Shown: positions 1-53,500, numbered from the stretch's first letter. The stretch: DNA of 64,000 nt from Antedon mediterranea (GCF_964355755.1 NC_092672.1:25178437-25242436); one strand, 5' to 3'. Numbers and translations are program-made. Notes: a model not told the origin generated them from the letters alone.

Positions 1-15
1 ACACACGCCGAGTAC

Positions 16-1503
16 GTGTCGGAAGCTAAACAGAGCACGAAGAAAGAGACTGAAAAGAAGATGCTCGACATGTTGACACAGGCCGAGAAACAGCACACGC
101 GGGAACGTGACGAGGAACGTGATCGACTCGAAAAACAACTGAAATCTGAAGTAACTAAACTAGGACAAAAACACGACGCAGAGATGAAACGTGTCGCGAA
201 AGAACACAGCACTGCTATACAGCGACAGTTGACGTCGGCAGCGAACGCGTCGAGCAATCACAAAACAGAATTGAAGTCGACAATACGTGATCTAGAAGAA
301 GCGCGAAAAGCTCGTGACTCGTTGTGTACGCAAAACGCTAAACTTCAAGAGAAGTTTACTGCCAAGGAAAAAAGTTTAGCTGAAACACATCGGTTATCCG
401 ACGACAAGAATACAGAAATATCCTCTCTTGCCGCTCAGGTAATTATTTTAAAAAATCACAGCTTGACTGCACAAAAGCGCATCGAAAGTCTCGAAAAGGA
501 ATTGGAACATTCGCAGCGAAAAGTATCCGAATCCTATCTGAAACTGTCTGAATTCATAAAGAATCAAAGCGACGGAGGCGGTGGAGGAGGAGGAGATGGT
601 GGATCTGATGTGTTACATGAAAGAATGAAAGATATCGAAGCGTCATTGGAGCAAGAAAAGCGCCAAAATCTATATAAAGATGGACAGATTGCACATTTGA
701 AGTCTGATGTTAAATTTTTAACTAGTAAAGTTGAAACTGCAAACAGCGAACGAGAACGACAGGTTGCAAACTTACAACGGAAACTTTTCAATAAAAAACG
801 TACGTCGCATTCGTTATATACGTTACATCATGATGAAGATGAAGAGGATAAAGTGGAGGAGGAAGAGATATACGATGAAGCTGAGTACAATCATGACTAT
901 TACGGTGATGAACATGATGATGATAATGAGCATAATGGTGGCAATGAGGATGATGATGAATACAAAATACAATTTGTTGTCGATTACAGTCCAAGTAATA
1001 CGTCCTATCATCAGTTATTCGGAACCGGAGAGTTTACTTTCAACGAAGTGATTAATCAAGCAAGACATTACATCAATTCCACCGATGATGAAGATGTATC
1101 AACAGTAGAAGCAGCAGCAAAATTGACCGACAGATGTGGCTCGACATATTTTGCGCCTATGGTCGTACGCAAAGGCAATGTAACCGAAGGCGATAGAACT
1201 GTAATGAAAGTGATTTCGTTCATGGGAAAAATACCGGGCGTGACATTGGTAAAACCGAGTCAAAGTAGCGTTCCCATTTGTTTTCTTGCGTCAGACAATT
1301 CGTGCAAGTATCGCCGTAGAGGTGATGCACGATACGTAATTTTTGGCAAGGATATGCGTATAGATTGGTCGGAGAAAGATTGGTATGTACAATTGGTCGG
1401 ACGTATTCTCGAAAACAATCTTAGACACAATCCAAAGGTAATCACTGCAGCACCATGTTTGACCCAACAGACGATCCAGTTACCAGCTCCGATAACTTTC
1501 TAA
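16..1503 (+). CDS. Coiled-coil protein with acidic tract (probably 5'-truncated by the window edge)
   Basis: 495-aa ORF with a GTG start at the window edge. The N-terminal ~260 aa are heptad-like and E/K/Q/L-rich, followed by a D/E tract and a globular C-terminus. No family recognised. Confidence 0.7.
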   Translation: MSEAKQSTKKETEKKMLDMLTQAEKQHTRERDEERDRLEKQLKSEVTKLGQKHDAEMKRVAKEHSTAIQRQLTSAANASSNHKTELKSTIRDLEEARKARDSLCTQNAKLQEKFTAKEKSLAETHRLSDDKNTEISSLAAQVIILKNHSLTAQKRIESLEKELEHSQRKVSESYLKLSEFIKNQSDGGGGGGGDGGSDVLHERMKDIEASLEQEKRQNLYKDGQIAHLKSDVKFLTSKVETANSERERQVANLQRKLFNKKRTSHSLYTLHHDEDEEDKVEEEEIYDEAEYNHDYYGDEHDDDNEHNGGNEDDDEYKIQFVVDYSPSNTSYHQLFGTGEFTFNEVINQARHYINSTDDEDVSTVEAAAKLTDRCGSTYFAPMVVRKGNVTEGDRTVMKVISFMGKIPGVTLVKPSQSSVPICFLASDNSCKYRRRGDARYVIFGKDMRIDWSEKDWYVQLVGRILENNLRHNPKVITAAPCLTQQTIQLPAPITF

Positions 1504-1613
1504 TCCTAATCAATCTTCTCTTGACCAATCTAATAGCGAATACTCGTCGACATGAGCAGAAGAAGGAGAAGAAGGAAGAGGAGAGACAACTGATTACCTC
1601 CATATTTTAGATT

Positions 1614-2209
1614 ATGTCGTTTGATTTATGGAAAAGTTTAGAGTCACGCGTTGAACGTAGATGGATAGAATGGTCTCATCATCATCATCATCATCATCAC
1701 GACGACGACGACGAGGAAGAAGAAGAAGAAGACAACGCTTACTTGAAAGAATTGTTGAAGGAATTCAAAGGAAATTTGGAGAGTATATGTACCAAAAAAG
1801 GCGATGAACAAGATGTTCTCTATTACGCACGATGCATTGCGCTCATCGAACGTCTCTTGTTCGACACAACCACGATAACGTCCGAGTGTTGTACAATGGC
1901 CGACATGGACAGTATATTGAAACGCAATGTTCTCTTTGCCTGGACCAATGTGCACTCTTTCAAAATTCTCGAAAGATTATCAACAATTTGGAGATTTGTG
2001 ACTGTAATGGGAACCGTACCGGCAATGCCGATCGGATGCTGTCCCATTGTCGGCTACAAATGTTTTTGGTGTAGAATTAAAGATGAAAACCTTACAGATG
2101 AGTGTCATCATCTTGTCACTACCGTATTCAGCGAAACAACAGAACAAACAGCAAAAAAAGAAGAGACATCACTCGTTGTATTTCCACTTCCAGCATCATC
2201 ATCACCGCC

Positions 2210-2256
<47 letters not shown>

Positions 2257-3098
2257 TATCAACATCAAATTATTACGATGAGTTTGGTTTTGCCAAACGC
2301 ATCGATAAACGAGTCAAGAATGCCGTTGAAAAACTTAGAATTGAAATCGAGAAAGAAATTCGATATGTAGAATCGTGCGTTAGCTATACGTTGTTGCCAA
2401 AAACAATTAGTCTCGAGTGTACGGCATCGATTGCAAAACTGTTGTGTTTTGCCGAACGCCGTCGGTGCATGGCGTCCAAGCAGTACGCGTGTTTCGAGCA
2501 TTGTAATCTTGATGTTTGGAGTAGAAACCTGCTCGAGTGTATGTTGGCGAATCCGGACAGACACGATGAACGCAGAGCGGCAACGTGTACATTTTTTCGT
2601 CTCGTTGTCGATCCAAGTACGGTGGTCGATCCGGCAATCATTGGACACGAAACGGCGTTCAGGAAATGGATGGAGGCGTGTGACGTGGACGTGGAAAGAG
2701 TCTGTGACTACGTGAATGGATTGAAAAAAATGACACCGACAACAGAAATAAATAAAAATGATCAAGTTACAAGCATGTACAAATGTTTATTAATTTGGCA
2801 CATGTTCTCGTCCATGCCCGTATCGGGAGGTGGTCCGTTAACGATCCATCGATGCGATCTTGACGGAATGCCAAGCGCAGACGGACTTTGTTTTCTTTAC
2901 GATGACAGACGTTTTCTTGTTAAACGCGCTGATCGTGTACTCAATTTCACCTATGAACGTGCTGTAGAGTCATGCGTGGCCTGGATACGGTACGGTACGC
3001 TATCGATGAATTCACCCACTGTGAGGCGTGTACTGTTCCATACTGGCTTCGATGACGATCGACATGATATCCCCAAACATGATGGCCAGACGCGATGA
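1614..3098 (+). CDS. Hypothetical viral protein (494 aa)
   Basis: Long ATG-initiated ORF with poly-H/D/E and poly-P/S microsatellite-derived tracts. No family recognised. Confidence 0.7.
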
Positions 3099-3413
3099 CA
3101 TTTGCGACACGATAATGTTCTGCACTCTGTAATCGATTCCCATCATTACCGTCATGCGAAGTAAAGTCTCTGTCATGAACATGAGTCTACCCCGGCCACC
3201 ACCGTAGTAACTCGAATAGTATCTGATGAGAGGATATTTCAGTCCACTGTAGAACGTTATGGCAAACAGAATTATATTGGACGTCAACAGTTGCTTGTAG
3301 CTTATCTTCTCCTTATCGTACGTATTCCCTTGCCAGTTGTATTTCGACGTAAGACTGTACAGAACAACGACGAATATCGTAAAAGTCACTATTAACGGCG
3401 CAAATGGTTTCAT
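3012..3413 (-). CDS. Small putative membrane protein
   Basis: 133-aa ATG ORF with two hydrophobic segments (LIVTFTIFVVVLY; NIILFAITFY). It fills the gap between neighbouring genes, divergent from the Snf7-like gene. Confidence 0.4.
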   Translation of the reverse strand: MKPFAPLIVTFTIFVVVLYSLTSKYNWQGNTYDKEKISYKQLLTSNIILFAITFYSGLKYPLIRYYSSYYGGGRGRLMFMTETLLRMTVMMGIDYRVQNIIVSQMSSRLAIMFGDIMSIVIEASMEQYTPHSG

Positions 3414-3450
3414 TGTGCGCTATGCTGCCTTATTGCATCAGCACGCAAAC

Positions 3451-4023
3451 ATGTTTGGTAAAAGAAAAAGAAGAGGCGAAGCCATTGAACAAAAACGAGT
3501 AGAATCTATGCGCAACATTGCCGCCATGCAACACACATTCGACGAAAAGACGATGCAAATGCAAGAAAGTATACAGTCAGGTTTGAAGAATGGAATTGAT
3601 GCGAAAATGCTGTCGTCGTTGATCAGACGAAAGTTGAATTATGAACGAATGTTGACCACGTCTCAGAACGCCATGTTAAAGTTGGAGAAAGATGCACTTT
3701 CGTCTAAATTACGAACGTTTGACAGGCTGCAATACGATCGACTCAAGGAGGAAGATTACTCTCTCAGAAAATCAGAGAAGAGCATGAATCCCAATAGGAT
3801 ATGTTCACTTTTAGGAAGCGTTAACAACAGACGACTTAGACACAATACTGCAATGGATTCAATTCGAGGATTGTTGGACGATGATGATGATGATGATAGC
3901 AGCGATGAGGACGAATTGAATGATGATGACAATACATTGGCACGTGAGCTCGTCGACCGAGAGATTTGTAATAAACTTGTCAACTTGCCCGAACCACCTA
4001 ATCGCTCAAAAGTACCTTCTTGA
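3451..4023 (+). CDS. Snf7/CHMP4-like ESCRT-III subunit homologue
   Basis: Read from the ATG at 3451 (MFGKRKRR): basic helical N-half with LIRRKLNYERML (cf. CHMP4 ALKRKKRYEKQL), acidic C-half with DEDEL, and a terminal LPEPP resembling the MIM2 LPxVP. Length ~190 aa. Confidence 0.65.
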   Translation: MFGKRKRRGEAIEQKRVESMRNIAAMQHTFDEKTMQMQESIQSGLKNGIDAKMLSSLIRRKLNYERMLTTSQNAMLKLEKDALSSKLRTFDRLQYDRLKEEDYSLRKSEKSMNPNRICSLLGSVNNRRLRHNTAMDSIRGLLDDDDDDDSSDEDELNDDDNTLARELVDREICNKLVNLPEPPNRSKVPS

Positions 4024-5183: not shown

Positions 5184-5879
5184 GTTTGCCGTGTTTGCTT
5201 TGCTTCTAAAGTTTGCCGTCGTGCCCGTAGACTGCAACACTTGTACTCCATCCGGAACACCTTTGAACGTGAACGCGTATCGTCGTTGAGCCATCTCCAA
5301 TAGACGAATGACGTCTTCTCGATTGGTACGCGCGCAGTTCAAATCCTGAGCCCAGTTAACGACGGATATACTATTTTCGTGTACAAGAAGAGATGCCACC
5401 ACAAGTTGACCGGCGCGATTCTTGCCGCTACGTCGAGGCACTCTGACAACCGTAAACTTTCTATTGAATTCGTCTATCTTTCTAGCGGCAGAATGTCGTA
5501 CGGCCGGATGCCATCGAGCCGGTTCGGTCATCGACTGTGCCTCCTCGTCGGACAGTACGCCGAGTATGCAAAGTGATGGAATTCTCAGCTTCGACGCTCG
5601 ATCTCCAAACACTTTGTTGAATCGTCCAGCTATGACAGCGTTACACATTTCCTTCTGAAACGGCTCTAATCGTATGTTACTTTGGCGACACAGAAACTCT
5701 AGAGTTGACTTGACGTTGCTTACGAACGTTAGACATTTTTTGTCCATGTCCGCCGTTGCTGCATTATTGTCGGCAACGCATTCACTCAACGGTTTCAGGA
5801 CGCATAATCCAAACGAATGGCGCTTTCGTTCTTCTATTCTATTGCATATGGTACGCATTTGTCGCTGGTGGGAAATCAT
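5184..5879 (-). CDS. DNA packaging terminase ATPase subunit, exon 1 (herpesvirus UL15-like)
   Basis: LEPFQK (cf. UL15 LELFQK) and Walker A FTVVRVPRRSGKN (cf. VFLVPRRHGKT). The frame reaches KANTAN then a GTGAGT donor at 5183-5178, equivalent to the UL15 HNTN|xIRGQ exon boundary. No Walker B/nuclease exon was found in the window. Confidence 0.85.
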
Positions 5880-5979: not shown

Positions 5980-7285
5980 ATGATGATGATGTTGTTGTTT
6001 ATGTTTCTATTTTTTTTAAATTGCGATGGCAAGGTGATACGTCACGGAAAGCCATACGGTCAACTTGCGAACGGTAACAGAACGCTGATATGTTCAAGCG
6101 AGAGTATGTTTAACATAGAACGAAACGGAGAGTTTGCGTGTCCAAACTCGGAGGGAGAATACGAGGTGCTGGACATGATAACAACCGACAGACAAAGTAA
6201 CGTTACCGTTTTATTTGACGATGAGTCGACGTTCAACGTGGACCTTAACACTAGACTGGAATTTGATTTGTCTGCAAACAAAAGCAAGGTCGACTATCGA
6301 CAGCAGATGTCTGCGTCGTTTTACATTAAATTGAACGAATCGAGAGATGGGCAAATTCTGTACAGCAACAGTGACAAAGATTACATGTTTATACGAATTT
6401 TGGACAGTCGACTGGCTGCCACATTTGATCTTGGCTCGAAACCGTTGACGGTGGTGAGTCGAGAGAACGTTTTAGTTGGAAAATGGTATCATTTCACCGT
6501 TAAACGAGTTGGATCGTGGGCCAGAATCGTAACAAACGGTCTGTTCGGACCTTGGTCGAGTGTACACGGAAACTACACTCGCCTCGACACAAACAATCTG
6601 TACGGCATAGGTGCGTCCGATACGTTCCCATCGGTGAGCGCGTGTCTCGCTTTGTTCCAGTTCAACGGTAAACGCCTCTTACCGCAGAATCTGAAGACGT
6701 GCAAAGTAACTGAGCATCAGCAGCAGCAACGAGAACGTGGCGCTACTGCAACGCAATCTGTTAGCAGGGCAAATTTACTAAAGGGTGAACGTGCATTTCA
6801 CTTATCTCACGCCGTTTCTACTACTTTTCAATGGCCTAGTGACGTCGACTATCAGGACAGAGTGTTCTTATCGTTTTACATAAAACTAAACAAAGACGCC
6901 GATGGACAGATTCTGTACAGCAGTGGCAACGAGGATTATATGTTTTTGGGTATCGTCGACGGTCGATTGAACGCTACATTTAACATGGGTTCTGGATCGC
7001 TGACAGTTGTCAGCGATCATGTGCTCGTTGTCGAAAATTGGTATCATTTCGACGTTTCCAGAATCGGTAATCAGGCTAGAATTGATTCGGATTTCAACGT
7101 CGGTGGCTGGACAAAGCTGAACGATACGATGGGCGGTACCAGCCTCGATTTGAACGGTACATTTCATTTGGGCAGTACCAATAGAACACAGTCGATAACC
7201 GGTTGCATAGCATCCTTTCAGTTTAACGGATGGTTACTGCAACCCAACACGGTTACAGACTGCACATTCAACGAAAATGATGATG

Positions 7286-7316
<31 letters not shown>

Positions 7317-9180
7317 AAACGCACGGGCAACGACAGCAGATCATACGGTTTCATTGATCGGCGATTGGAAGATGAAGTTGACGAACGATTCTTGTTATGC
7401 ATTCGATATCGATCCGTACGACCTGTACACGTTCAATGAAACGGTGAACGTAAAATTCTTGTTGAAACTCACGAAAAAAGAAGACGGACAAATCATGTAT
7501 TCCAACGTGGTGAACAACGCCGAAGCGTTCGGACCGTCCGTCTTGATAGAAGACGGCCATTTAGTCGTAGAGTTGCGTAGCCGCGGCTCTTCGGCAACAG
7601 CAAAGTCGAAAACGGCTCGACTTAGCAGCATCGAAAAACTTGCGATACGAGAATGGTACCAGGTGTTGATAAAACGGAAAGGAAATCAAGTGTACTTGTC
7701 GTTGAATACGGCCTTTGACGAATGGGCACAAGTGACGAAAAGGTTTACGCCCAACGATGTGGTGACAACGCTTAAGGTGGGCGCAAGTGATACTTTAAAG
7801 TCGATTGTAGGTACAGTGACAATGTTGAAAGTAAACAATCTTCAATTACAACCGAGTATAGCCGAAACGTGTACACACGATGATGATGTCGTCGACGAGG
7901 ATACGTTCATGACGACACCGTCTGCACCGCCACTCGAGTCTGCATTCAGAATTGACTTGAAAAAGAAATCTTGTCGTTCCTTCACCGTTCCCACTTTGAA
8001 TCGTATAGAAAACACAATGGTCATCGAATTCTACATTAAACTGGATACGGTGGACGAAAAACGACAAATACTACTGTATGAATACAGTGCCGACGTACGA
8101 ATGTCAATTGTTGTCGTACCGGGAGGACGATTGAAGTTCAGTTTTGTGTCTTTGTCGCGTATGACTGTCATCAAAAACATCGGACGAATGACGCAGGGTA
8201 CTTGGTATCAATACACTCTCGAATTGGTCATGGGGTTTGTACGCTTGTCTTCAAACTCGAAGGTGGTTAGTCGATGGCAACGGCTACCGTCTGAATTTAA
8301 GTCCCCTTACCGACAGGATGGTGTGTTTATAATTGGCGCAAACAATCGTTTACCGTCGATCGATGGAACTATCGCCGATTTCACCATCAACGGATGGACG
8401 ATGGATTCTTTGAATCTTCGCACTGATTGCAACGACGGCCCGGCCGTCGTTGACAAAATTGAGCCAGAGAATATGATTTTACGCGACGTAGACACCAGGA
8501 TAGACTATCAATTATGGTACGAACCGTCGTCATCGAAAAGTTTCTTTTTGAATCAAACAGACTGCGTCAAGCTTACAACACCGCCGTTGATGATCGATAA
8601 AGCGTCAGTCTCTTTTTACTTTATATCGCTAAGAAATTCCGGCAACATTTTAAGCTATCAGAGTGATACGACAAATTTTAACGCGCGACTCGTTGACAAT
8701 TATCTACACGTTATATTCAAATCACCTTCCGGCCTTCGTGTTCAGATTATAAGCACGCAACAGTACATCACGAATACATGGGCGTATGTTGAAGTTTACA
8801 GAAATAGACTGTACGTTCGATGTAAGTTCTCCGGTTACATACAAGAAGAAAAGTTACCCACCGACGAGTTCAACACCGTTTCAACTACAAAGAATGCGAC
8901 TACAGTGATTGTTGGAAAGGTAGACGAAGAAAGTAATTCTATAACCGGTGTCATAGCCGCTCTGTACATAAACAAGGCATTATACAAAGTGCAGGATGCT
9001 TATTCGTGCATCATCGACATACCTACCACCACCACCACTACAGCAGCAGCAGCAGCAACGAATACCTCTATACACTCGTCTGACCAACTGCGTGGTGCGT
9101 CATCCACCTCCTCCTCCGGTTATAACATTTCATCGAAAATATTATGTTTATCTCTGTTGTTGTTGTTCATATTTCAATAA
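5980..9180 (+). CDS. Secreted or GPI-anchored protein with about five laminin G-like domains
   Basis: N-terminal signal peptide; repeated SFYIKL...DGQILYS...DYMF...G.L..TF.LGS...WYHF.V.R units; Thr/Ser linker; hydrophobic extreme C-terminus with no cytoplasmic tail. Confidence 0.85.
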
Positions 9181-9290: not shown

Positions 9291-9976
9291 CTACCAACAT
9301 CGTGATCCGCCATAGGCAATAATGGCGATAGTTATATACATATCGTTCAACAAATCTCCAATTGAGCCTATCAAATTTACGTTATTTTCTGATATGAAAT
9401 CTAGATGTTCCAACTCGATAAAGAGCTCAAACGAATTGTTTATCCGTTTTATGTGTTTTCTTGGCATGTAGCTTTTCAGAAGATTCTTCAATTCATTCAC
9501 TTGCTCTTTATCAATATTTGAAGCAATATCAACAAGCATACGTCTAGATGAAAATAGATAAAATAATAATAATAAGATTCTGCTGACCATATTAAAAAAA
9601 CAAAAAAAAAAACAAAAGAAAAAAAAACCAAATATCAATATTAAACTTACCTATACCGTGAGATGATAGGCATCGCTTTTTTCTGCAAGTATCGTTCTAC
9701 TCTACACGCCATTTCAATCTCGCCTATATTACCCAGCAGTTCTTCGAGTAAGTTTAAGTTCATTTTTGATACTTTCTTCATGCCTTCAAGACGAGAAACT
9801 AATTCAATGAATGAAGAGATTTCATCAAATTCTTCATAGCGAAGACCGATCGTTTTATCGAGACATAAGTATTTGAGTTTACAGACATCAGTTTTTGTCA
9901 GTGCACTGTCTAGTTCGACAATCAATTTGCTATAGGTTGCGTCAGTAAATGTCTTGCTATCGTTACCTGCACCCAT
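9291..9976 (-). CDS. Tandem death-effector-domain protein (vFLIP-like), 2 exons: 9976-9651 and 9543-9291
   Basis: DED1 (YSKLIVELDSALTKTDVCKLKYLC...NLNLLEELL) and DED2 (YRRMLVDIASNIDKEQVNELKNLL...FELFIELEHLDFISENNVNL). The GTAAGT donor (9650) and TCTAG acceptor (9544) join in frame to give 192 aa with no caspase domain. Confidence 0.85.
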
Positions 9977-10444
9977 GGTGAACAAATATAAACTGACTGA
10001 TTTTCTCTCTCTCTCTTAAGTAGTCGAAAGTGGCCATAGCAGCTGCAGTTGTCATTGTTTTCGTTTGTATACTGTTTGTGATGACGAAAGTTATGACAAA
10101 ACGGTTGTATTCGATGTATTCGTTCTGAAAAGAACTGTTGAGTTTCTCGACGTTTCGATCAATATGCTTTGATCGTCTTCAGGAGTGAGAATGCAGAAAG
10201 TCGAGGAAACTTGGAATATAAGTGGAAAGGGTGGGACTGGTGTGAAAGCCAGAAACAATGGCAAGTTCACACAATGGGAGGGATTGAAACTGGCTGTTTC
10301 TCATGAACAATAGTGAAGTGTTTCTGATAGGTGTGAAAAGCAAGATGAGACAAGCTAAAAACAATAGCATTGTCTCAAAGTTGGGTGTAGACTGGCCAAA
10401 ACATAGACCATGTGACAAAGTTCGTCTAAACCCGGTCACTGCTG

Positions 10445-17654: not shown

Positions 17655-17840
17655 CTAAAATAGACGAGAATTATACACGTTAGTCGATCACTATAATAAT
17701 AAAAAAAATGTGGCAGCAGTTTTTGTCCAAAGTTTTACTGTAAATTCAATTTTGTATATTATGCCCCTCTTATGTAATAAACTGTTATAAAGCATGCTTT
17801 TTATGGCGAAATGCTTTATTTTAAAGAACCAATAGTTGCA

Positions 17841-23800: not shown

Positions 23801-24624
23801 CTAGGCTAGCTAGTATACTGGACATCATCGCTGATTTAATCATTATTATTACCCAGTCCACCCCATCCAGATATCCATCCTACCTAGGCTAGCCTATGTT
23901 AAGTTTTAAAATTTTACATTAATATTATCACCTAAACTAAGCCTAGGCTAATGTATTTTTTTTTAAATCAAAAATAATCATTATCTTTATATACAAGCCA
24001 AGTCGCGTCAACCTGGTAAGTGGACCTGACTACCCACGTCGTGGGGGTAGCCTAGGCCTACTAGATGGGGCGATCTTGGCCATGCTGTATACAATTCAAA
24101 TACGGTTCACGTCAAGCTGAAACCTTATATTAACAATTCTCGTAACAATTGCCTACGAAATAAAATAAATCTCAGTTCCTAAAGTGACTAACAACTAATT
24201 ATATATAAATATCCAAATTTAACCATATTTTTACATTGAATAATTACTAATTTTAAGCATATTTACACTCTAAATTTCAACTACTCACCAGGCTTCGAAG
24301 AAACACGCTTTCTTTCTCGCCATCCCATAGTAAGATAAAATAACCGCTCATTTAACATTTTCTCATGAATATTCATATTTTCGAGTCAAATTTTATGTCA
24401 TTATCTCAAATATGTTTTATTTTCGTTTCAGTTTATATTTTTAATGTTGTGATTGGTATGGACGCACCATCTACGCATGTGTGCCACTGTTAAAAAAGTG
24501 TTGTTCCAAATAATATTATTATTATTATTATTATTATAGTGCGCCCTCTCTGGTTAGGTTATGGAAATATTAAGATAAAAACTATAGAGGGGGTATGGCT
24601 TTTTGTCAATAACGAAACCACCGT
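17841..24624 (+). mobile_element. Decayed Chapaev-type (CMC/N-RAG-TP-like) DNA transposon
   Basis: 12-bp inverted termini ACGGTGGTTTCG (17841-17852) and CGAAACCACCGT (24613-24624) bracket a transposase pseudogene. No clean TSD was seen. Confidence 0.7.
18570..22660 (+). pseudogene. Chapaev/RAG1-N-like transposase pseudogene (multi-exon, with stops and frameshifts)
   Basis: Chapa motif H-x7-CRICG...D..VHPSYVCHTC...WRQH...CTAC; RING (CSICKHIL...CSHHFC..C); core motifs GGDKGGGS, PSLHISLGVFKKLYDLLE, QAYHGKAFVGNHVHK, PKLHMLEFHV and NEQVGELIH. Confidence 0.8.
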
Positions 24625-24830
24625 AGAAACATACAATGTATTTCAAAATTATAACTTTTCTATATCAATGTAAACACATTACCAGCAACAACACAGTGGA
24701 TTATACAAAACATAACTCACTAAGTCCATAGGCATACTACATGCAACACTTTATATATTGACTGTATATGTACAGGTATTCCAAAAGCAGTAAAAATAAA
24801 ATACATTTTGGGGGACAGGCCTACCTGGCT

Positions 24831-25659
24831 GCGATTTTGTTTTTCGTACATAAGTTGGGGACCCCTCATGAAACGTCACAAAATAAACATGAATAATTCA
24901 TCAGTTAATAAAAATGTTCTTGTTCCGTTTGCACCCGAAGCGTATAGCAACAAGAAGTGATTACACAAGTGCGCGCGCGGTACGATTCTAGGCCTATCTA
25001 CGCTGTGGTTGCGGCGTGCAATTTCATAAAAGAATAACGGCGTTTTGTGTGGATTGTCAAAATAATCAGCCTTTAGTTTATGGTGTTTTTAATATAATTT
25101 ATTACTAAAGAATTACGTGTTAAAAAATGATAGTTTCTATTAATACTACATGTATTAGGCCTAATGTTAGTCTCTAAACCCACGGTCTATTCAAGTAGTA
25201 GCTGTGTGTGTGTGTGTGTGTGTGTTAGGTATGACACAGTCCGAGTAATACTAATATAAGTCAGCAAAATTAAACAATAAACATTACACAAAAATACATT
25301 TTTTATTCTCGTGGGTCTAATCTTTCCCATCTCATGTGTTCATATACGCGCATTTTTCTTTGAGTACATATTGTTTGATAATAAAATAGCAGAATTACGA
25401 TTAGCCTTGACACATTATGCATGCCAGTGGTGTGTGTGTGAAGAAGAGGGCGCGAAGGCAATCACGTGAATTGACCTAGAATCCCAGGCCGCGTAATTTT
25501 TTCTACTGTAGAAAGAATCGTATCGCTTTAGTTTAATCACTTCTTGTTGCTATACGCTTGGGTGCACACGGAAAAACAAATTTAACTGATGAATTATTCA
25601 TGTTTATTTTGTGACGTTTCATGAGGGGTCCCCAAATTATGTACGAAAAAAAAAATCGC
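24831..25659. mobile_element. Non-autonomous Mutator-like (MULE) MITE
   Basis: ~130-bp imperfect TIRs (GCGATTTT...GGGGACCCCTCATGAAACGTCACAAAATAAACATG and its reverse complement ending AAAATCGC). Exact 9-bp TSD TACCTGGCT at 24822-24830 and 25660-25668. Confidence 0.9.
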
Positions 25660-25785
25660 TACCTGGCTAGCAACTTGCAATACATGCAATTTAGGCCTAC
25701 CTAGCCTAGACGTGACCTATGCATAAGTAACTAGAAAAGTAATAGAAGAAGATGAAGCAGAAAAACAATTTTTTTTTTTACTTAC

Positions 25786-25972
25786 ATCATCCAAATGTCT
25801 CGTGAGTTTTGATTGTAAAACTCCCGGTGATAATCAGACATTGATAACCTATGTTGAGCAGCCGAAAACGTACCGTACAATATGGACATTGCATTGGTCG
25901 TCGAGAGCACAAACACTACGAGTGTCATCAAATCCATTTCTCTTGCATAGTGATTGTAAACGGAGAGTCGTA
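25786..25972 (-). CDS. Internal exon of the membrane-protein gene ending at 16985
   Basis: Open frame RLSVYNHYAREMDLMTLVVFVLSTTNAMSILYG...RDIWM. The GTAAGT donor (25785) is phase 2 and joins in frame to the 17654 acceptor. Confidence 0.65.
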
Positions 25973-26045: not shown

Positions 26046-26700
26046 TAAAATAATGGCGGTGCAATATTATTATACCTACGGTTGCAATCTGGATGCGTTA
26101 TGAAATACGTCAGATACCCACCGTTTGTTGTAGATGACGTCGATATAAAGACTAATATTCACCCTAGATGCTATGTTTAATACACACACATACACACACA
26201 CACATAAAATAATGATGGTGCTATATATTATACCCACGCTTGCAATCTGGATGCGTTATGAAATACGTCAGATACCCACCGTTTGTTGTAGATGACGTCG
26301 ATATAAAGACTAATATTCACCCTAGATGCTATGTTTAATACACACACATACACACACACACATAAAATAATGATGGTGCAATATTATACCCACGCTTGCA
26401 ATCTGGATGCGTTATGAAATACGTCAGATACCCACCGTTTGTTGTAGATGACGTCGATATAAAGACTAATATTCACCCTAGATGCTATGTTTAATACACA
26501 CACATACACACACACACATAAAATAATGATGGTGCAATATTATACCCACGCTTGCAATCTGGATGCGTTATGAAATACGTCAGATACCCACCGTTTGTTG
26601 TAGATGACGTCGATATAAAGACTAATATTCACCCTAGATGCTATGTTTAATACACACACACATAAAATAATGATGGTGCAATATTATACCCACCGCGTTT
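26046..26700. repeat. Tandem repeat, ~156-bp unit, about 4.2 copies
   Basis: GCAATCTGGATGCGTTATGAAATACGTCAGATACCCACCG recurs near 26084, 26242, 26398 and 26554. Confidence 0.95.
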
Positions 26701-27023: not shown

Positions 27024-28352
27024 ATGGCAGGAAGAAGAAAAAGAAGGAAACGAGCGAAACGATGTCAAAAACGAACGAACGACCGTTGTAATTTGTGCAA
27101 CCTGCCGACCGAATTGCTGCTGTACATTTTCTCCTTCATGGATTACGTGTCTCAGTTAGAGTTGGCCAACTCGAGTCCCTACATGACCGGATTGTTGGGC
27201 GATTTGGAATTGATCGCAACCGAGGCGGCCGTACAACTGTGCAAACGTAAACGTCACGGTACGGTTGACACGTTTCAAAGCTGCCGACCATCCGCCGGAA
27301 GCCTGTTGATGTGCGTGAAGCGAAAGTTTAAGCCGGTTCTCGATTCGCAATCGACTTTGCCGCAATTCTACATGTCTAACCTAGTGCTGAAGAATGTGCA
27401 TTTTAGAGAGGGAACACTGCATCGCATCTTGGAAGAAACGGTGGTCTGCTTGGAGTATTTGGAATTGGACTCGTGCACCGGTGTTGTTTTCCACCCGGCT
27501 GCCAATCAACTAATCCCGTCGGACAAAATAGGACATTCATCGATACATTGCAAAAACATGAAAGTGCACTTGGACGACGTTCGCCAAACCCTGGTTCCCG
27601 ATGGATTTTCTAGCAAATATACCTACTACGTGGTACTGACCGACTGCGACATGACGGAGACGGATCAAAATCTGAACTACAGGCTGTTGATCGTGTACGA
27701 CGGACGCTCCAACGGGGCAGATGTTGGACGTTACTTTAACCTAATCACAGTCTCGTCCGTGTGGAAAGAAACCGAAGTGTTGAAGGTTCGTCCCTACACA
27801 CGAAACAAAGAAGACACAGTGTGGATGCAGATGGTCAATCGGACCAGTTTAAATGCGGCCATCGACCATTTCGCCGAATCTTCAAAAGAAACCTCTCTAG
27901 AACTTTCGTTGGACGGCTACACGGATGACCGAGTCGACATGTCAGTCGGCTTGCGATTGATGAGCTGGGACTCTTTGACCACTTTGTTTCTGCTAAATTC
28001 AATAGTGGACGAAGGTTTTCTTTCTGTTGTCATGTCGGAACATCCGAACCTGAACACGATAACGATAAAGAATTGCAAAGGTGATCCGTTCGGTGAGATG
28101 GAAACGAGCCCCAACACCGCACTGAGGCATTTGAACCTGATCGAAATGAATATCGACGAGGCAGGCATGGCTGAATTCATGACACCAATCATCAACGTCG
28201 TCAAGTTAACTTTACATAATATGTGTTTCTTCGACGAACGTCTTTTCGCTAAACGATTGTACGAGACATCCGGCTATCGTTGGCTCGATTGTGAGTATGT
28301 CCGCGAGCCAGGCGTATTGGTTCCCATTGAGATGTTTCTTGAAACGGGTTGA
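27024..28352 (+). CDS. F-box protein with degenerate LRR-like C-terminus
   Basis: F-box LCNLPTELLLYIFSFMDYVSQLELANSS; basic N-terminal NLS; LxxLxL repeats (LEYLELDSC, LTTLFL, LRHLNL); intronless. Confidence 0.75.
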   Translation: MAGRRKRRKRAKRCQKRTNDRCNLCNLPTELLLYIFSFMDYVSQLELANSSPYMTGLLGDLELIATEAAVQLCKRKRHGTVDTFQSCRPSAGSLLMCVKRKFKPVLDSQSTLPQFYMSNLVLKNVHFREGTLHRILEETVVCLEYLELDSCTGVVFHPAANQLIPSDKIGHSSIHCKNMKVHLDDVRQTLVPDGFSSKYTYYVVLTDCDMTETDQNLNYRLLIVYDGRSNGADVGRYFNLITVSSVWKETEVLKVRPYTRNKEDTVWMQMVNRTSLNAAIDHFAESSKETSLELSLDGYTDDRVDMSVGLRLMSWDSLTTLFLLNSIVDEGFLSVVMSEHPNLNTITIKNCKGDPFGEMETSPNTALRHLNLIEMNIDEAGMAEFMTPIINVVKLTLHNMCFFDERLFAKRLYETSGYRWLDCEYVREPGVLVPIEMFLETG

Positions 28353-28503: not shown

Positions 28504-29379
28504 TCAATCATGATGAATTTGAAATATTACAAATGTCTTCATTACATCGTCTTTGTCAGCTTCTTCTTCACTCTTCTTTAGACGGAATCTTTCGGAAATG
28601 CGAATGTCGTCCGGAATATCAGATGTAGTGAATTTAGAATATTCTTGTATGAGCTCCGGTGTCATGTGGGGATGTAATTTCTTCATGATAAATTTATATT
28701 CCTTTTGCATAGCCATCTGCGTGCCTGCTATAAACGACTTTGGAAGAGGAGAGAGTCCCTGTGGAACGTAAATGTTCTCTACTACATCCCACAGAGTTTT
28801 CGGTAGGAAAGTGTGTTTTCTGGTCATTTCACGTTCCATACCATCCAGTACATTATGATAGAAAGTTGTCAAGACTTCCCTCTTTCCTGTCTTTGTAAAA
28901 TCGTAAAACTGTACAATTACGCCTTTGATGTATTGCAACCGAATTCTTTGCAGATACTCGTCCAATTCCTCAATGAAATACGTAGGCCTACGTCGACCAG
29001 TGTATGCGAATTCTATATTCGCTCCCTGGAGTAGATATGCGATCATCATTTTCAATATCGGTTTTCCTAACAAGTCCGTGTGTGCTATCGTTGGATGAAA
29101 GTCCATACTTTTCGAAATCCGGACATCCGCTTCCCCCGGAATGTACCATTGATGGTCATAATAAATTTCGTGAGTGGTATGGTCTGTGTAAACGTCTCGA
29201 TGTACATCGTAGCCTTTGATCAACAGAATTCGTTTAAATCTCTCTTCAAAGTATTCTGTTCTTTGAATTCTCAGCTTTTCAGTTACTGATCTTCGCAGCA
29301 TCATTTCCCGTTTTGTTGTGCTTTTTTTTCTGTTAAAATTTCTCTTTTTATATCTACCATTTCCCTCGCCCCCCCCCAT
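28504..29379 (-). CDS. Hypothetical basic viral protein (291 aa)
   Basis: Intact ATG ORF convergent with the F-box gene. No family recognised. Confidence 0.65.
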   Translation of the reverse strand: MGGGEGNGRYKKRNFNRKKSTTKREMMLRRSVTEKLRIQRTEYFEERFKRILLIKGYDVHRDVYTDHTTHEIYYDHQWYIPGEADVRISKSMDFHPTIAHTDLLGKPILKMMIAYLLQGANIEFAYTGRRRPTYFIEELDEYLQRIRLQYIKGVIVQFYDFTKTGKREVLTTFYHNVLDGMEREMTRKHTFLPKTLWDVVENIYVPQGLSPLPKSFIAGTQMAMQKEYKFIMKKLHPHMTPELIQEYSKFTTSDIPDDIRISERFRLKKSEEEADKDDVMKTFVIFQIHHD

Positions 29380-31362: not shown

Positions 31363-31878
31363 TTAAATGTCGCATACGCACAAGATTTCTATCGACATCG
31401 GCTCATATACTGCCGCGTCTACATTACATCGTTGAAAGCACTCATCCGATACGGGAATAGTTTCTGGATAACCAAACAGAGCGGGAACGCACCTTCCCAC
31501 GTTTTCACCTAATGGAAAAAAGCAATGAGAACCAAACAGATCGCATCCATCATTGTCCGGTACGAGAAGCCATTGATCATCAGCCGATCGGTTTAGGCTA
31601 CACGTTTCTAAAGAATATTTCATACCGTCCCATCGATCGCATTCATCACAACACGTAACAATATGAGTACCGTCTTCGATGATGTCAATGCACGCATATT
31701 TTTCGCTCTCTCTAATGCATGCGTCGTGATATAGAAACGGCGATACTCTGTCAACGTACACCGATCCAATTAACAAGTCCGGACGTTCATCGATGCACAT
31801 TACACAACGATGGTGGTAAAGTAGTAGTAGTAGTATGAGTAGTAGTAGTAAAATGTGTTTCAACGCCTCTGTATCCAT
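31363..31878 (-). CDS. Secreted cysteine-rich protein (171 aa)
   Basis: Leu-rich signal peptide followed by many Cys residues; no further TM segment. Confidence 0.7.
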   Translation of the reverse strand: MDTEALKHILLLLLILLLLLYHHRCVMCIDERPDLLIGSVYVDRVSPFLYHDACIRESEKYACIDIIEDGTHIVTCCDECDRWDGMKYSLETCSLNRSADDQWLLVPDNDGCDLFGSHCFFPLGENVGRCVPALFGYPETIPVSDECFQRCNVDAAVYEPMSIEILCVCDI

Positions 31879-34013
31879 GCGTCACAATTGGTTCTGATGT
31901 AAAGCGATACCAACGAAAACAAAGGCCAATGTCTTGTCTCATTATGTTCTGTAACGGGCATGCAAACGTGATGAAAATGTTTTGAGAATCCACTTCGTAT
32001 AGACGCTGATATGACGTGTGACGGAGGACGAGGTCCGGCGTTTTCAAATTTTACGAACCTGTTCAATTTGGTTGGAGCCATAGAATGCCAAGACCTTGTT
32101 GCCGGGTTGTAACCGCCAATCATGCGTGGTATTCCGTCTAATACGTCGTAAATAAAAGGAAACTTTACGGTTGATCTGACTTTTTGCCTGAACCACGGGC
32201 CGTGTTTTTCATTACGTTTAAAAACATGTTCATTGTTGACAACAAAAATGTGTCCACTGTCGTGTATAAGCGACGTGTTTTTGTCCAAGTGTCGAATGTA
32301 TGATTTGGCAAAATTATCAACGAAACGAGACGGAAGTATTCTGTTCGGAATGTCAACGTCGGCCATCAATTGGCTCGAGATTATTGAAAGCTTAGAAACA
32401 ACCGTTTTAGGCTCAGCTCTAGTGCACATGACGTTGCCGATAGTGAACAGTTCGATTTCACCGTTTGACTCGTTTCCTTTGCACCATTTACTCGAGTAAT
32501 AACGATACGTCGTATTGAAAGCAAACCACTCTTTTCGTATCGTGTCATACACGAATCCATATTTTTCAGTATCGCATCTACTCATGTCGGTTCCTAGAAA
32601 GTCTAACATGTCAGTCGGTGCGCCGGTTTCGAATCTACCACCAACAAACACTAGCAATCTATCCAGAAAACAAAACATTTGCATTCCACAACGATGCCGG
32701 CAAACGAGAGGCATTTCGCCAATTTTAGTCCATTCTGCTATACCGCCCTTGTTCAGGGTTTCTCTGGTGCACTCGTACACTTGAAAATCTGTTTCAAAGA
32801 CGGCGTACAGTGTGTTCTTGTTACTCGTGCAACTTAAAACGCCCTTTATTGTTACGTCATGAAACAATGGTCGAATGACAAGTATGGTTGTACCTGTGAA
32901 CGCATGATTCATGTACACGTCACCGGAAGAAAGAACGGTAAAAACAGATGCGTTCGGTGTGTCCTGACAGGCAAGTTGACGTTCCGGTGGTCGAGCAGAC
33001 ATTTTCAAGAGCGTCTTGATTCTGTCGGTGGTTCGTAAATCATCGACGACGACGTTGTTGTTGTGTTCGTTCATTCTATACGGCGAGAATACGGACGAGT
33101 CGAGAAGAATGCCCATGCTTGTCGCGTTGATCTTGTTGTCGGGCAATGATGCAACCCATACGGTCACTAACCGATTCACGTCTGCATTGTAACCGCTTTT
33201 GCGAGCGTTTCGACTCAGTAATTTGTCAAAGAAACATGGCGGAATCTGAGACATCCACATGGAAATCAAATCTGGTTTCTTAACAAACAAATCGTGAATG
33301 AGCGGTGCCCAGAAAATCAACGAATCGGCAATGACACTCGATATTGCGTATGCTTTTTCCCGTTGGATTGTCGCGTGAATCAATTGGAGTACAACTGCAG
33401 TTCTAATCGGATCAAAAAACATTACTGTCGCTTCTTTCGAAATTGTTTCAATTGTATCCGTTGAGATTTTTGGGAATACAATGCCTGTGTTTATGAGCAT
33501 TTGCTTGATTTTATCCAGAGCAATTGTATTGTTCAAGTACACAGACAGTTTTGTAAACGAAACGATGTTTTCAATTGTAAACGGTTCATTTCTTTTGGTA
33601 AAGTTGTTTACGGCGTTTGCGTCCAACCATTTCGGTACTTTATACCAAATGTTGCCGCTTACTTTATCTTTTACAAAATGAAGATTTCTTATCTTATTTT
33701 TTGAGTCGTCGTGTTGTACTCTGTACGACGAATCGGTATCACGTTCCAAAAACCCGTCGTCGTATACATCACCTGCATGCTGCTGCTGCTCCGGTTGAAC
33801 TTCAGTCTCCGAATCAATTTCGGGCACGTTATTCGGCGGCCGTTGAAATATTTCATAATTTAAAGGTGTTACGGTAGCAGATTTTGCTAACGTTGAAGGT
33901 CCATCATCATCATCATCTTCATCATCAGATGATATCCACACAGTATCAAGTTTTCTTACTTTCTTACTGTCTTCGTGACGTTCATTAGAACCGTGCCTGC
34001 GTCTGGACGCCAT
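31860..34013 (-). CDS. Divergent Kelch-repeat protein (BACK/Kelch-like)
   Basis: Kelch-like motifs WTKIGEMPLVCRHRCG, LLVFVGG, YDTIRKEW and GGYNPATRSWHSMAP, preceded by a helical region. First ATG at 34013. Confidence 0.7.
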   Translation of the reverse strand: MASRRRHGSNERHEDSKKVRKLDTVWISSDDEDDDDDGPSTLAKSATVTPLNYEIFQRPPNNVPEIDSETEVQPEQQQHAGDVYDDGFLERDTDSSYRVQHDDSKNKIRNLHFVKDKVSGNIWYKVPKWLDANAVNNFTKRNEPFTIENIVSFTKLSVYLNNTIALDKIKQMLINTGIVFPKISTDTIETISKEATVMFFDPIRTAVVLQLIHATIQREKAYAISSVIADSLIFWAPLIHDLFVKKPDLISMWMSQIPPCFFDKLLSRNARKSGYNADVNRLVTVWVASLPDNKINATSMGILLDSSVFSPYRMNEHNNNVVVDDLRTTDRIKTLLKMSARPPERQLACQDTPNASVFTVLSSGDVYMNHAFTGTTILVIRPLFHDVTIKGVLSCTSNKNTLYAVFETDFQVYECTRETLNKGGIAEWTKIGEMPLVCRHRCGMQMFCFLDRLLVFVGGRFETGAPTDMLDFLGTDMSRCDTEKYGFVYDTIRKEWFAFNTTYRYYSSKWCKGNESNGEIELFTIGNVMCTRAEPKTVVSKLSIISSQLMADVDIPNRILPSRFVDNFAKSYIRHLDKNTSLIHDSGHIFVVNNEHVFKRNEKHGPWFRQKVRSTVKFPFIYDVLDGIPRMIGGYNPATRSWHSMAPTKLNRFVKFENAGPRPPSHVISASIRSGFSKHFHHVCMPVTEHNETRHWPLFSLVSLYIRTNCDAWIQRR

Positions 34014-34066
34014 CGCAATACTACAGCAACACGCACGCACACACACAATATGATCGCTAATATTAC

Positions 34067-34399
34067 TCACTTCAATAACTGCTTAAGAAATGTGGTTAAC
34101 GTTTCAGAATATTCCTCCTTGTTTTTACTGGAACTAGCAAATTCACGTGCAACGTGAAGTGTGACAATAATGCGGCCCTCATTCACGTGGCCGTCTTCAA
34201 ACATGCCCACGAGCAGATCGTGTAATGACTTGGCGCTGCGACATTTCACCTTATCAACTTGATTCTTGATTTCAGTTTTCAATTCTGCGTTGCTAAATGT
34301 TTCCGGATATTCACGTTCAACTTTTTCCTCGTTTTCCAAATAATTTTTGGCCAAAACGATCAATTTATCAACATCAAAACCACCGTTTCTCTTTAACAT
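34067..34399 (-). CDS. Bcl-2-family (vBcl-2-like) domain
   Basis: BH1-like MFEDGHVNEGRIIVTLHVA (cf. LFRDGVNWGRIVAF). First in-frame ATG at 34399 with TATAAA ~57 bp upstream. No BH2 or TM tail. Confidence 0.7.
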   Translation of the reverse strand: MLKRNGGFDVDKLIVLAKNYLENEEKVEREYPETFSNAELKTEIKNQVDKVKCRSAKSLHDLLVGMFEDGHVNEGRIIVTLHVAREFASSSKNKEEYSETLTTFLKQLLK

Positions 34400-34577
34400 C
34401 TTGTTCAACAATATTTCTTTTTTTGAAGTGACTTTCTCGTTTATACGCACATCAATTTATAGTACCGGAATGATTCTCTGTCAACAATCCCGTTTGTACG
34501 GTTCCGGTCTAGGATTTGCGTTTGTGATGACCGCTATGTTATGTAAATGAGCCTGTGCAGCTGGTGTATTATTAATT

Positions 34578-34614
<37 letters not shown>

Positions 34615-34637
34615 ACACACGTTTCATAAGTTTGGTT

Positions 34638-35261
34638 ATGGATTCAGAACAGGGCTTAATTGGAGACCAGGGGTATGCTACGTCTAAAGCCAAAAACTTG
34701 TACATTAACCAGGTATCTGATGGTTTTGATGCCAAGTTGAACAATTTTAAAAGGCATGTTGCCGAGGAGTCATATTCAGCATTGAAACGTGCTCGGTCAG
34801 CGCATTTCAACGATGAATTAAAGATAGTGTATGAAAACAACGATCAGAGTGAAACGCTCACCGAAGGTATTATGATTCTTGAGAAATGACAAAAATTTAA
34901 AAATTTAAAAAAATAAATAAATAAAAAATTTATAATAGCTTATTTTTTTTAATTTTTTTTTGTGTGTGTTTCAGGTGAAGACTTTGGACCACTCACAGAT
35001 CTGCGTATTTCCGAGTTGGCAAGAGAGCTGGGCAATGATTGGTCAATGATAGCAACATATTTAGGAATTTCACTCGCTCAACAACAAGATTTACGTCAGG
35101 CTCATTACATTTGTAGTCGGGAACGTAATCAAGAAATGCTTGTTATATGGCGCAAGAGAGATTCATGCTGCCAAAAATCAGACAAACTACAATCATTAAT
35201 GAATGCATTTGAAAAAAGTGGAAGAATCGACTTAAAAAACAAAATCAGTCTATGGCAATGA
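34638..35261 (+). CDS. Death-domain protein, 2 exons: 34638-34866 and 34975-35261
   Basis: Death domain LTDLRISELARELGNDWSMIATYLGIS...EMLVIWRKR...LMNAFEKSGRIDL. The G|GT donor and TTTCAG|GT acceptor are both phase 1 and join in frame. Confidence 0.8.

Positions 35262-53464: not shown

Positions 53465-53500
<36 letters not shown>

Follow-up and report, generated by a model that had tools for sequence, protein, structure and literature searches.

The 64,000-nucleotide stretch analysed here (the window, with positions counted from its first letter) raises the question of whether a herpesvirus genome lies embedded in the chromosome of an invertebrate, as an earlier note on this DNA had proposed. 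The herpesvirus families recognised so far have vertebrate and mollusc hosts, and echinoderms (with hemichordates) are the sister group of chordates. Our best explanation, to which we assign a probability of roughly 0.7, is that the window carries part of the genome of a deep-branching herpesvirus, one that probably resides as a low-copy insertion in the chromosome of what is probably a feather star; it is likely part of a herpesvirus because a predicted fold and a predicted splice site match, amid packed genes and host-type transposons.

The terminase exon and its relatives

The assignment turns on one feature:

5184..5879, minus strand: exon 1 of the terminase ATPase subunit, 232 codons; its Walker A motif is VPRRSGKN, and a phase-0 donor (GTGAGT) lies at 5183

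Its match to Pfam DNA_pack_N was weak (E 0.012, under the curated cut-off), as were its PDB profile scores to herpes models (E 0.2-0.3), and such weak direct sequence scores count against our best explanation. The best named sequence relative was the Teratorn terminase P0038 (27% identity, tblastn E 6e-12), and a profile match linked the exon to the alloherpes-like locus L002 at ~25% identity. L002 is probably Anguillid herpesvirus 1, an identity that fits its IL-10 neighbour. A PHROG search with the exon returned no match, and IMG/VR scans with the exon, P0016, A4 and P0017 returned no relative.

The predicted phase-0 GT donor lies 84 codons past Walker A. An in-frame GT(A/G)AG donor was present at 49 of the 56 orthoherpes-motif loci as well as in L001 and L002 (51/58 overall), at a distance from the Walker A proline of 81-85 codons in the orthoherpes loci and 93 in L002, and the residues at the donor site are N/D/H-V-S in 17 of 18 relatives. 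The terminase is thus predicted to be split, with exon 1 ending before Walker B at a conserved site. Exon 2, with Walker B and the nuclease, was not found within the 64-kb window and may sit outside it.

An alignment-based AlphaFold model of the exon (pLDDT 84) replaced a single-sequence fold (pLDDT 37). With this model, a PDB-wide fold search placed the HSV-1 terminase at the top, with Z 13.8 across 195 aligned residues, whereas the highest-scoring phage protein reached 9.4 across 121, and 13 of the 14 BFVD fold matches at E<=0.001 were named herpesviruses, the first phage standing at rank 15. The whole N-terminal helical region of the model aligns with herpes terminases and not with phage ones. 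Structural alignments with named herpesviruses gave 13-18% identity, those with malacoherpesvirus terminases 14-15%; OsHV-1 ORF109 matched at E 3.8e-3 with 15% identity, more weakly than the allo- and orthoherpes models. Three partly independent lines, namely profile matches, the exon-1 donor position and the predicted fold, support a terminase of herpes type. The claim of a terminase ATPase exon is upheld by its Walker A motif and donor, the weak Pfam match and the fold. An affinity to tailed phage would have spoken against the herpesvirus reading; in both the fold and the profile searches, herpes terminases came out on top.

A terminase phylogeny had also been called for. Our trees sampled Ortho- and Alloherpesviridae/Teratorn and hold no malacoherpesvirus or mirusvirus sequences. 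In both, the window exon and six unnamed proteins formed a clade of 7 (support 100/99). The orthoherpes clades (23-row and 8-row) excluded it at 100/100 and 100/99, and no nesting within Orthoherpesviridae was seen. The window group also fell outside Alloherpesviridae/Teratorn in both free trees, in which one free alloherpesvirus was sampled; a topology test did not reject a single clade of the window group and allo/Teratorn (p-AU 0.107). A new lineage relative to the sampled ortho- and alloherpesviruses is supported, in agreement with the earlier note, and the low structural identity to malacoherpesvirus terminases given above also speaks for it. The sequencing runs contain another, related virus as well, which differs from the window exon at 23 listed sites, 17 of them third-codon positions.

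Gene content and extent of the element

The terminase exon lies in the first of several gene blocks with the following content:

1..1503, plus strand: coiled-coil/acidic ORF, 5'-open, 500 aa, with no Pfam or PHROG match of note
1614..3098, plus strand: ORF, 494 aa
3012..3413, minus strand: ORF, 133 aa, with a hydrophobic N-terminus
3451..4023, plus strand: helical/acidic ORF, 190 aa
4045..5151, minus strand: ORF, 368 aa, whose CxxC pairs at the C-terminus likely bind zinc; it lies just within the terminase intron
5980..9180, plus strand: type I membrane protein, 1066 aa, with laminin G repeats (Pfam Laminin_G_2) and hydrophobic N- and C-terminal segments
9291..9976, minus strand: FLIP-like gene with tandem DEDs (Pfam DED in both parts), its two predicted exons separated by an intron at ~9650-9580
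13530..14489, minus strand: multi-pass membrane protein, 319 aa, 5 hydrophobic segments
14486..14977, minus strand: ORF, 163 aa, with a hydrophobic segment at the N-terminus
15082..16773, plus strand: ORF, 563 aa, with an acidic/basic tail
27024..28352, plus strand: F-box/LRR-like protein, 442 aa (Pfam F-box E 8.5e-4, just under cut-off)
28504..29379, minus strand: ORF, 291 aa
31363..31878, minus strand: Cys-rich ORF, 171 aa, with a hydrophobic N-terminus
31860..34013, minus strand: ORF, 717 aa, with a weak kelch motif in its C-terminal half (Kelch_2 E 0.0096)
34067..34399, minus strand: Bcl-2-like protein, 110 aa (Pfam Bcl-2 E 1.7e-4, under cut-off; PDB Mcl-1 E 0.06)
34641..35261, plus strand: death-domain gene, two predicted exons (Pfam Death E 1.5e-9)

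The coding fraction is 0.97 in 1-9180 and 0.92 in 13530-17655, and CpG o/e is 1.3-1.45 across the gene blocks, as expected from the earlier description of compact, CpG-rich genes. That the virus genes are not CpG-depleted is an observation that counts against our best explanation. Captured host-type regulators had likewise been proposed, and the searches recovered four laminin G domains in the 5980..9180 protein (Pfam E 2.6e-33), two DEDs (E 1e-12 and 2.5e-13, with cFLIP as best PDB matches, E 2.8e-5) and the death domain, with the Bcl-2 and F-box matches under cut-off. The claim of decayed viral genes was not confirmed: in the dense gene blocks the frames are open, and nothing matched the fragments found at 10.2-11.3 kb. 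A DED-like reading of the fragments at 10.5-11.1 kb was not supported by searches. A suspected resemblance of 3451-4023 to Snf7/CHMP ESCRT-III found no Pfam or PDB support and was rejected; the final ORF of L061 gave it a weak phmmer match (pairwise E 0.028), but this involves acidic low-complexity sequence alone. For the Cys-rich ORF at 4045-5151, PDB gave His-tag artefacts alone and an Atlas search was blank; an Rfam search of the window gave no match.

Beyond 35.5 kb the DNA is organised in repeats:

35500..47624, no strand: CpG-rich tandem array built from 44 copies of a ~290-bp unit and showing higher-order periodicity at ~5.2 kb
47625..64000, no strand: three ~4.9-kb units, 99.5-99.9% identical, each with a CD225/IFITM-like gene and a 261-codon frame
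49186-49640, 56131-56585 and 61048-61502, minus strand: spliced CD225/IFITM-like genes (Pfam CD225 E 6e-11, 3e-7)

The three copies of the CD225 gene within the second array are identical, and the DNA up to 64000 is still CpG-rich (o/e 1.26-1.44) and has repeats in common with 12.1-12.7 kb. Both arrays probably belong to the viral element. The earlier note had ended the element at 35261, where there is probably no boundary: CpG-richness, CD225 copies and common repeats extend to 64000.

Pfam, PHROG and other searches recognised no capsid, triplex, portal, protease, family B polymerase or helicase-primase gene within the window. Alloherpesviridae and Teratorn share 12-13 core genes, of which the window showed the terminase; comparison with 20 kb of L002 gave no match besides it, and a 30-kb stretch of OsHV-1 (including the polymerase and a capsid-size ORF) was matched by no window ORF. 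Because no second core gene was recognised in the window, the herpesvirus call rests on one gene. The earlier note had regarded a lack of other herpes core genes nearby as evidence against its reading, and in the window this is what we find; it is weak counter-evidence because divergence is strong and just part of the genome is in view.

Host transposons and the state of the element

Several features of host type, or of repetitive character, interrupt the gene blocks:

10117..10400, no strand: high-copy host interspersed repeat, CpG o/e 0.56, recognised from read depth
11400..13100, no strand: non-coding, AT-rich block, parts of which are related to the repeats at 35.5-64 kb
16985..17654, minus strand: predicted exon 2 of a membrane-protein gene, acceptor TTTTAG at 17655
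17655..25785, minus strand: predicted 8.1-kb intron of the same gene, holding host transposons, with GT..AG ends and frame-compatible
18300..24100, plus strand: fragmented Chapaev/RAG1-N-like DNA transposon with a Cys/His zinc-finger stretch, RING and DUF1280
24831..25659, no strand: MITE of 829 bp, presumably Mutator-like by TIR/TSD rules, with 136-bp TIRs (90%) and a 9-bp TSD (24822-24830 / 25660-25668)
25786..25937, minus strand: predicted exon 1 of the membrane-protein gene, donor GTAAGT at 25785
26046..26693, no strand: 156-bp tandem repeat, ~4 copies

The coding fraction of the intron is 0.03. Within it, the Chapaev-like transposon (Pfam DUF1280 E 1.3e-7; best PDB match the RAG1 RING, E 0.012) is CpG-depleted (o/e 0.28) and its transposase is in pieces; its outer ends are uncertain, a 13-bp inverted repeat at 17689/24541 lacking a TSD. 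The proposal that transposons sit inside a gene thus agrees with a broken transposase and a MITE in a predicted GT..AG intron, and the frequent motif remarked on in this DNA is real, TAGGCCTA occurring in 8 copies in the intron against 0.07 expected from base composition and in none in 1-17655. The segment 12695-13058 repeats 29533-29967 in inverted orientation, at 78% identity. At 10117..10400 summed read depth reaches at most 1.9e5 (X1) and 8.1e5 (X5) against ~100-170 in the flanks, with many loose ends.

By its position metadata the window lies inside a sequence piece that carries host genes and is at least 22 Mb long, extending at least 11.0 Mb before and at least 10.9 Mb after it. Endogenous status is therefore probable: the placement in mid-piece and the inserted host repeats favour this part of the earlier claim, but no host-virus junction was found within the window. 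No kilobase of the window has more than one telomeric hexamer, and therefore there is no telomere-repeat integration signal in it. Over the part covered by read evidence (1-19000), depth was flat in most unique bins, at ~80-130 in X1 and ~125-235 in X5. In X8 and X9 (the latter RNA by guess only) the window sequence was present at a low depth of ~2-7, with the related virus at 33 in X9; this low depth also fits infection of some cells, an observation that counts against our best explanation.

Could the sequence instead come from a non-integrated herpesvirus, latent as an episome or replicating, that was co-sequenced and mis-scaffolded after acquiring host transposons in the nucleus? We consider this unlikely. 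The intact, CpG-rich gene blocks would suit such a virus, as would the presence, in sequencing runs labelled as three organisms, of copies 97-99% identical to the window, their low depth in X8 and X9, and a ratio of window virus to second related virus that varies by run (~4:1, 1.5:1, 0.15:1); the flanking tandem arrays are also difficult for scaffolding. Against it stand the placement in mid-piece among host genes, three separate host-type insertions, one of them 6-7 kb and broken, and the flat, high depth in two organisms.

A mirusvirus, or another duplodnavirus outside Herpesvirales, is far less probable. Some mirusviruses have terminases split at the alloherpes splice site, according to one study (PMC12768974), the Atlas feature neighbours of P0001 are unnamed viral and phage terminase clusters, and the window yielded no further herpes gene. 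Yet the profile matches are to Teratorn and an alloherpesvirus, the N-terminal helical region sides with herpes terminases, and the captured genes are of animal type, whereas the same study links mirusviruses to unicellular eukaryotes (PMC12768974). The least probable reading is that the entire herpes genome is moved by the Chapaev-like transposase, as a mobile element of the Teratorn kind. It has in its favour a DNA transposase within the viral region and the comparable fusion of Teratorn with piggyBac (PMC5601938). This transposase, however, lies in the interior, within an intron, is fragmented and, in contrast to the virus, is CpG-depleted, and a contig from organism B departs from the window at the intron edge at 17660 and continues for ~1.4 kb unmatched, which is consistent with an empty transposon site. 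Neither an intact piggyBac transposase nor element-level TIRs were found in the window; the element ends lie beyond view.

Proposed biology and relation to known systems

Under the preferred reading of an integrated, deep-branching herpesvirus, homology suggests that replication would be nuclear and that the packaging ATPase would receive its Walker A half from this exon, which would be joined by cis- or trans-splicing to an exon with Walker B and the nuclease beyond the window. The vFLIP and vBcl-2 proteins of vertebrate herpesviruses block apoptosis, and the tandem-DED, death-domain and Bcl-2 proteins may do so in this host. By the same reasoning the F-box and kelch proteins may redirect ubiquitin ligases and the laminin-G protein could be a surface glycoprotein. 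Integration would most likely have proceeded via recombination or repair at or near large repeat arrays and not by a fused transposase, because the sole transposase is a broken passenger in the interior. Non-coding sites (an intron and an intergenic gap) would later have received host transposons, leaving the gene blocks unbroken. We regard the insertion as probably young, and the lineage as probably in circulation to this day.

Integrated herpes-like genomes have been described from lancelets, an annelid and a starfish. BelcheriHV-1, a malacoherpes-like genome integrated in the lancelet Branchiostoma belcheri, resembles the window in its deuterostome-invertebrate chromosome, in the alternation of dense gene blocks with sparse repeat-rich ones, and in being carried by only some individuals of a host with a second related virus; it differs in its 27 malacoherpes-like ORFs (PMC12373286), the window ORFs having matched nothing in the tested OsHV-1 stretch. 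The starfish element shares an echinoderm host, a chromosomal setting and deep branching, and was placed between Ortho- and Malacoherpesviridae by DNA polymerase, the window by terminase; the text consulted on it mentions no crinoid. Teratorn, a piggyBac-alloherpesvirus fusion of teleosts, is likewise an endogenous herpes genome with a split terminase and captured host genes (PMC5601938). The window differs in its probable crinoid host, its separate clade in both trees and the lack of an intact transposase or element-level TIRs within the 64 kb in view. With L002 and the UL15 of Orthoherpesviridae it has in common the exon-1 donor site, the Walker A P-R-R-x-G-K and the fold, yet it is only ~25% identical to L002 and outside both groups in the trees.

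A literature search for a crinoid herpesvirus or endogenous virus gave nothing relevant among the records listed, and the echinoderm herpes record, in the literature consulted, amounts to at most one preprint-level starfish case. A terminase clade so remote from every named family, to which at least six unnamed proteins in public data belong as relatives, points to a missing family, which bears on herpesvirus co-divergence with animal phyla. As a tentative proposal that we hold to be somewhat less than an even bet, this would be a family-level branch of Herpesvirales infecting echinoderms, still active in feather stars, moving between related species at only 1-3% divergence, repeatedly entering the germline intact, equipped against apoptosis much as vertebrate herpesviruses are (with FLIP-like, Bcl-2 and death-domain proteins) and also with an IFITM-like gene, and standing between the herpesviruses of molluscs and those of vertebrates. 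If true, a provirus that is young, still largely intact and segregating in two to three related species would be a tractable case of germline integration, one achieved with neither telomeric repeats nor a fused transposase, and the captured apoptosis regulators indicate echinoderm defences that the virus must overcome.

Terminase exon and its herpesvirus relationships

The feature on which the earlier note had anchored its herpesvirus reading is

5879-5184, minus strand: terminase ATPase exon, 232 residues, Walker A motif VPRRSGKN

Its frame terminates at an Asn followed by GTGAGT. The exon matched Pfam DNA_pack_N weakly (E 0.012), and as a lone query recovered nothing relevant in PDB and had zero matches in PHROG. 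A search of 1.84 billion representatives yielded 18 relatives at E<=0.001, one with 72% identity, five with 34–44% and 12 with 25–34%. Their alignment revealed invariant E-x-F-Q, P-R-x-x-G-K and terminal V-S elements, the last preceded by N, D or H at the exon end in 17 of the 18 and attributable to a GT(A/G)AGT donor being read through. Profile searches reached fish loci (Mugilogobius, Channa, Larimichthys), an Oryzias latipes 'DNA packaging terminase subunit 1', taken as Teratorn, the piggyBac-alloherpesvirus fusion of teleosts, and L002, a 248,526-bp viral record, possibly Anguillid herpesvirus 1, in which an IL-10 gene adjoins the exon. The profile's top PDB match was HSV-1 terminase subunit 3, at an E of only 0.2–0.3.

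Among 56 loci with the orthoherpes motif VPRRHGKTW, 49 carried an in-frame GT(A/G)AG donor 81–85 codons downstream of the Walker A Pro; in the other seven the frame was short or truncated, or the donor was a variant. The corresponding distance is 84 codons in the window, 87 in L001, a metagenome contig with a related exon, and 93 in L002. According to PMC13595911, Herpesviridae terminase genes are spliced, while those of allo- and mirusviruses have several exons, trans-spliced in some cases. The donor position rules out phage but does not discriminate against mirusviruses, since some of these use the alloherpes splice site (PMC12768974).

In a structure model built from a 31-sequence alignment (pLDDT 84), the predicted fold was closest, among 48,161 PDB representatives, to HSV-1 terminase 6m5r (Z 13.8, rmsd 6.3, 195 aligned, residues 10-232), phage terminases coming next (P74-26, Z 9.4, 121 aligned; T4, 8.9). 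Foldseek with the same model placed HSV-1 chains on top in PDB (E 1.6e-3). In BFVD the model had 14 matches at E<=0.001, one unnamed and 13 named herpesviruses, with each of the three families represented (ranid, sturgeon, HSV-1, EBV, CMV, soft-shell clam; identity 13–18%); the leading phage ranked 15th and ORF109 of the oyster herpesvirus OsHV-1 18th (15% identity). The profile matches to Teratorn and L002, the donor position and the lead of HSV-1 in the modelled fold thus bear out a herpes-type exon, and we put the probability that the virus belongs to Herpesvirales at about 0.92.

Phylogenetic position

Removal of near-duplicates reduced 116 exon-1 stretches to 57 rows covering orthoherpes, allo/Teratorn and unnamed relatives; malacoherpes and mirusvirus rows, three proteins lacking the motif and loci lacking the donor were left out. 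Both the LG+G4 tree (57 rows; long-branch warnings apply) and the LG+C20 tree (29 rows) united the window with its closest protein relatives (P0001-P0006) in one clade (support 100/99). This clade was joined by a second unnamed clade and by the protein P0017 (100/94 and 93/93) and stood apart from allo/Teratorn and orthoherpes in both trees. The divergence claimed earlier holds in the free trees, but a constrained sisterhood with allo/Teratorn was not rejected (p-AU 0.107). Motif scans of the viral collection with either unnamed clade did not retrieve the oyster virus record, though it is present there.

The second clade (P0007-P0012, P0014, P0015, P0018; motif APRRNGKS) and P0017, a lone long branch, both have the conserved donor and add to the herpes-like lineages in public data that have yet to be described. 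L001, of marine type and with an exon that belongs to the window clade, carries ORFs of 1213+ codons (2132-5770, plus strand) and 396 codons (904-2091, minus strand), neither with a Pfam match or similarity to the window; gene order downstream of exon 1 is not conserved between the two.

Gene content, repeats and host insertions

1-9180: dense gene block, coding fraction 0.97
13530-17655: dense gene block, coding fraction 0.92
27000-35261: dense gene block, coding fraction 0.63
25785-17655, minus strand: predicted 8.1-kb intron splitting a membrane-protein gene

AT-rich non-coding DNA separates the blocks, and tandem arrays run from 35.5 kb to the window end. CpG o/e is 1.3–1.45 in the blocks, in keeping with the compact, CpG-rich genes described earlier, 1.26–1.44 in the arrays, and low at 18300-24100 (0.28) and 10117-10400 (0.56). 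Recognizable products are of animal type, as the proposal of captured host regulators had it: a membrane protein with laminin-G repeats, a tandem-DED protein in two exons that is nearest to cFLIP, proteins of death-domain, Bcl-2-like, F-box/LRR and, weakly, kelch type, and, among the right-hand repeats, a CD225 protein encoded by two exons. About ten long ORFs lack any match, and a polyadenylation hexamer lies no more than ~200 bases from the stop in 9 of the 17 long frames. A 190-aa helical protein (3451-4023, plus strand; basic N-terminus, acidic tail, L-P-x-P-P at the end) was considered as a possible relative of Snf7/CHMP ESCRT-III, a reading that neither Pfam nor PDB supported. The other herpes core genes that the earlier note had proposed seeking were not recognized within the 64-kb window: Pfam and PHROG searches turned up neither a capsid, polymerase or helicase gene nor a second terminase exon. 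No core gene emerged when the window was compared by phmmer with 20 kb of L002 and with 30 kb of the oyster virus, and tblastn with a Teratorn-like exon 2 did not reveal the missing half of the terminase.

The predicted intron does contain the host-type DNA transposons reported inside a gene: a transposase in fragments, comprising a Cys/His stretch, a RING (top PDB match RAG1, E 0.012) and DUF1280 (Pfam, E 1.3e-7), adjoined by an 829-bp MITE whose TIRs measure 136 bp and whose 9-bp TSD is perfect. PMC4411706 reports Chapa plus RING for Chapaev and RAG1-related transposons. The frequency of TAGGCCTA in the intron was likewise confirmed (8 copies versus 0.07 expected). The segment 10117-10400 is a high-copy host repeat, with loose ends at both sides and a summed depth (contig depths are not copy numbers) of 1.9e5 in sequencing run X1 and 8.1e5 in X5 versus ~100–170 on its flanks. 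The non-coding inverted copies at 12695-13058 and 29533-29967 (78% alike, containing a tandem duplication of 20 bp; their summed depth in X1 is ~10 times that of the flanks) are possibly another small mobile element.

Being CpG-rich, sharing sequence with 12.1–12.7 kb and carrying a CD225 gene per 4.9-kb unit, the arrays (35.5–64 kb) probably belong to the viral element. The three 4.9-kb units are 99.5–99.9% identical, which means recent amplification or assembly expansion. At 49810-50951 (plus strand) several short frames, perhaps one gene in pieces, precede a 261-codon frame identical across all three units; the arrangement recurs in the other two. The mid-piece, CpG-rich ~290-bp satellite at 35500-47624 (higher-order period ~5.2 kb at 97%) may be a repeat belonging to the virus or a young array resembling a centromere. 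The motif GCGCCCTC(T/A) recurs at 11634, 11923, 18189 and 24541 and once in every 4.9-kb unit and the partial unit (51846, 53971, 58791, 63708); the copies at 11923 and 24541 resemble the CTCF site consensus. The motif copies are possible insulator sites.

Related copies and probable integration

Segment 1-9200 was present in eleven runs: organism A accounts for four, all from one sample (95% of words; possibly the source of the window), organism B for three from two samples (47%) and organism C for a single run (23%), while the remaining three had small shares. Four were compared in detail over 1-19000. Pieces from X1 differed from the window by 0–3 letters per 0.6–2.3 kb and those from X9 (organism A, separate study) by 0–2 letters (depth 3–7); divergence was ~1–3.5% in X5 (organism B) and ~1–3% in X8 (depth 2–5). 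A second virus, with ~80% nucleotide identity over part of the terminase exon (5176-5682), occurred in organisms A and B at depths of 24 (X1), 86–96 (X5) and 33 (X9, on a 12.7-kb contig); at least two viruses of the window clade are thus common to both organisms. Third codon positions account for 17 of the 23 listed differences between the two exons, a pattern suggestive of purifying selection.

An X5 contig matching the window up to 17660 and then unmatched for ~1.4 kb is consistent with a copy without the transposons. The window lies in the interior of a sequence piece of at least 22 Mb, a position to be read with the caveat that viral contigs flanked by repeats can be mis-scaffolded, and no host-virus junction is visible within the window; true chromosomal integration appears likely. 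Of the divergent endogenous herpesvirus-like genome proposed at 1..35261, what stands is a real segment of a herpesvirus from a deep, unnamed lineage, and its endogenous state is probable. Our literature search on herpesviruses of crinoids, feather stars and sea stars or other echinoderms listed no paper on a crinoid virus, and the accessible part of PMC11097642 does not mention crinoids. Endogenous herpesviruses are an already known phenomenon; the lineage and the probable host class appear to be new.
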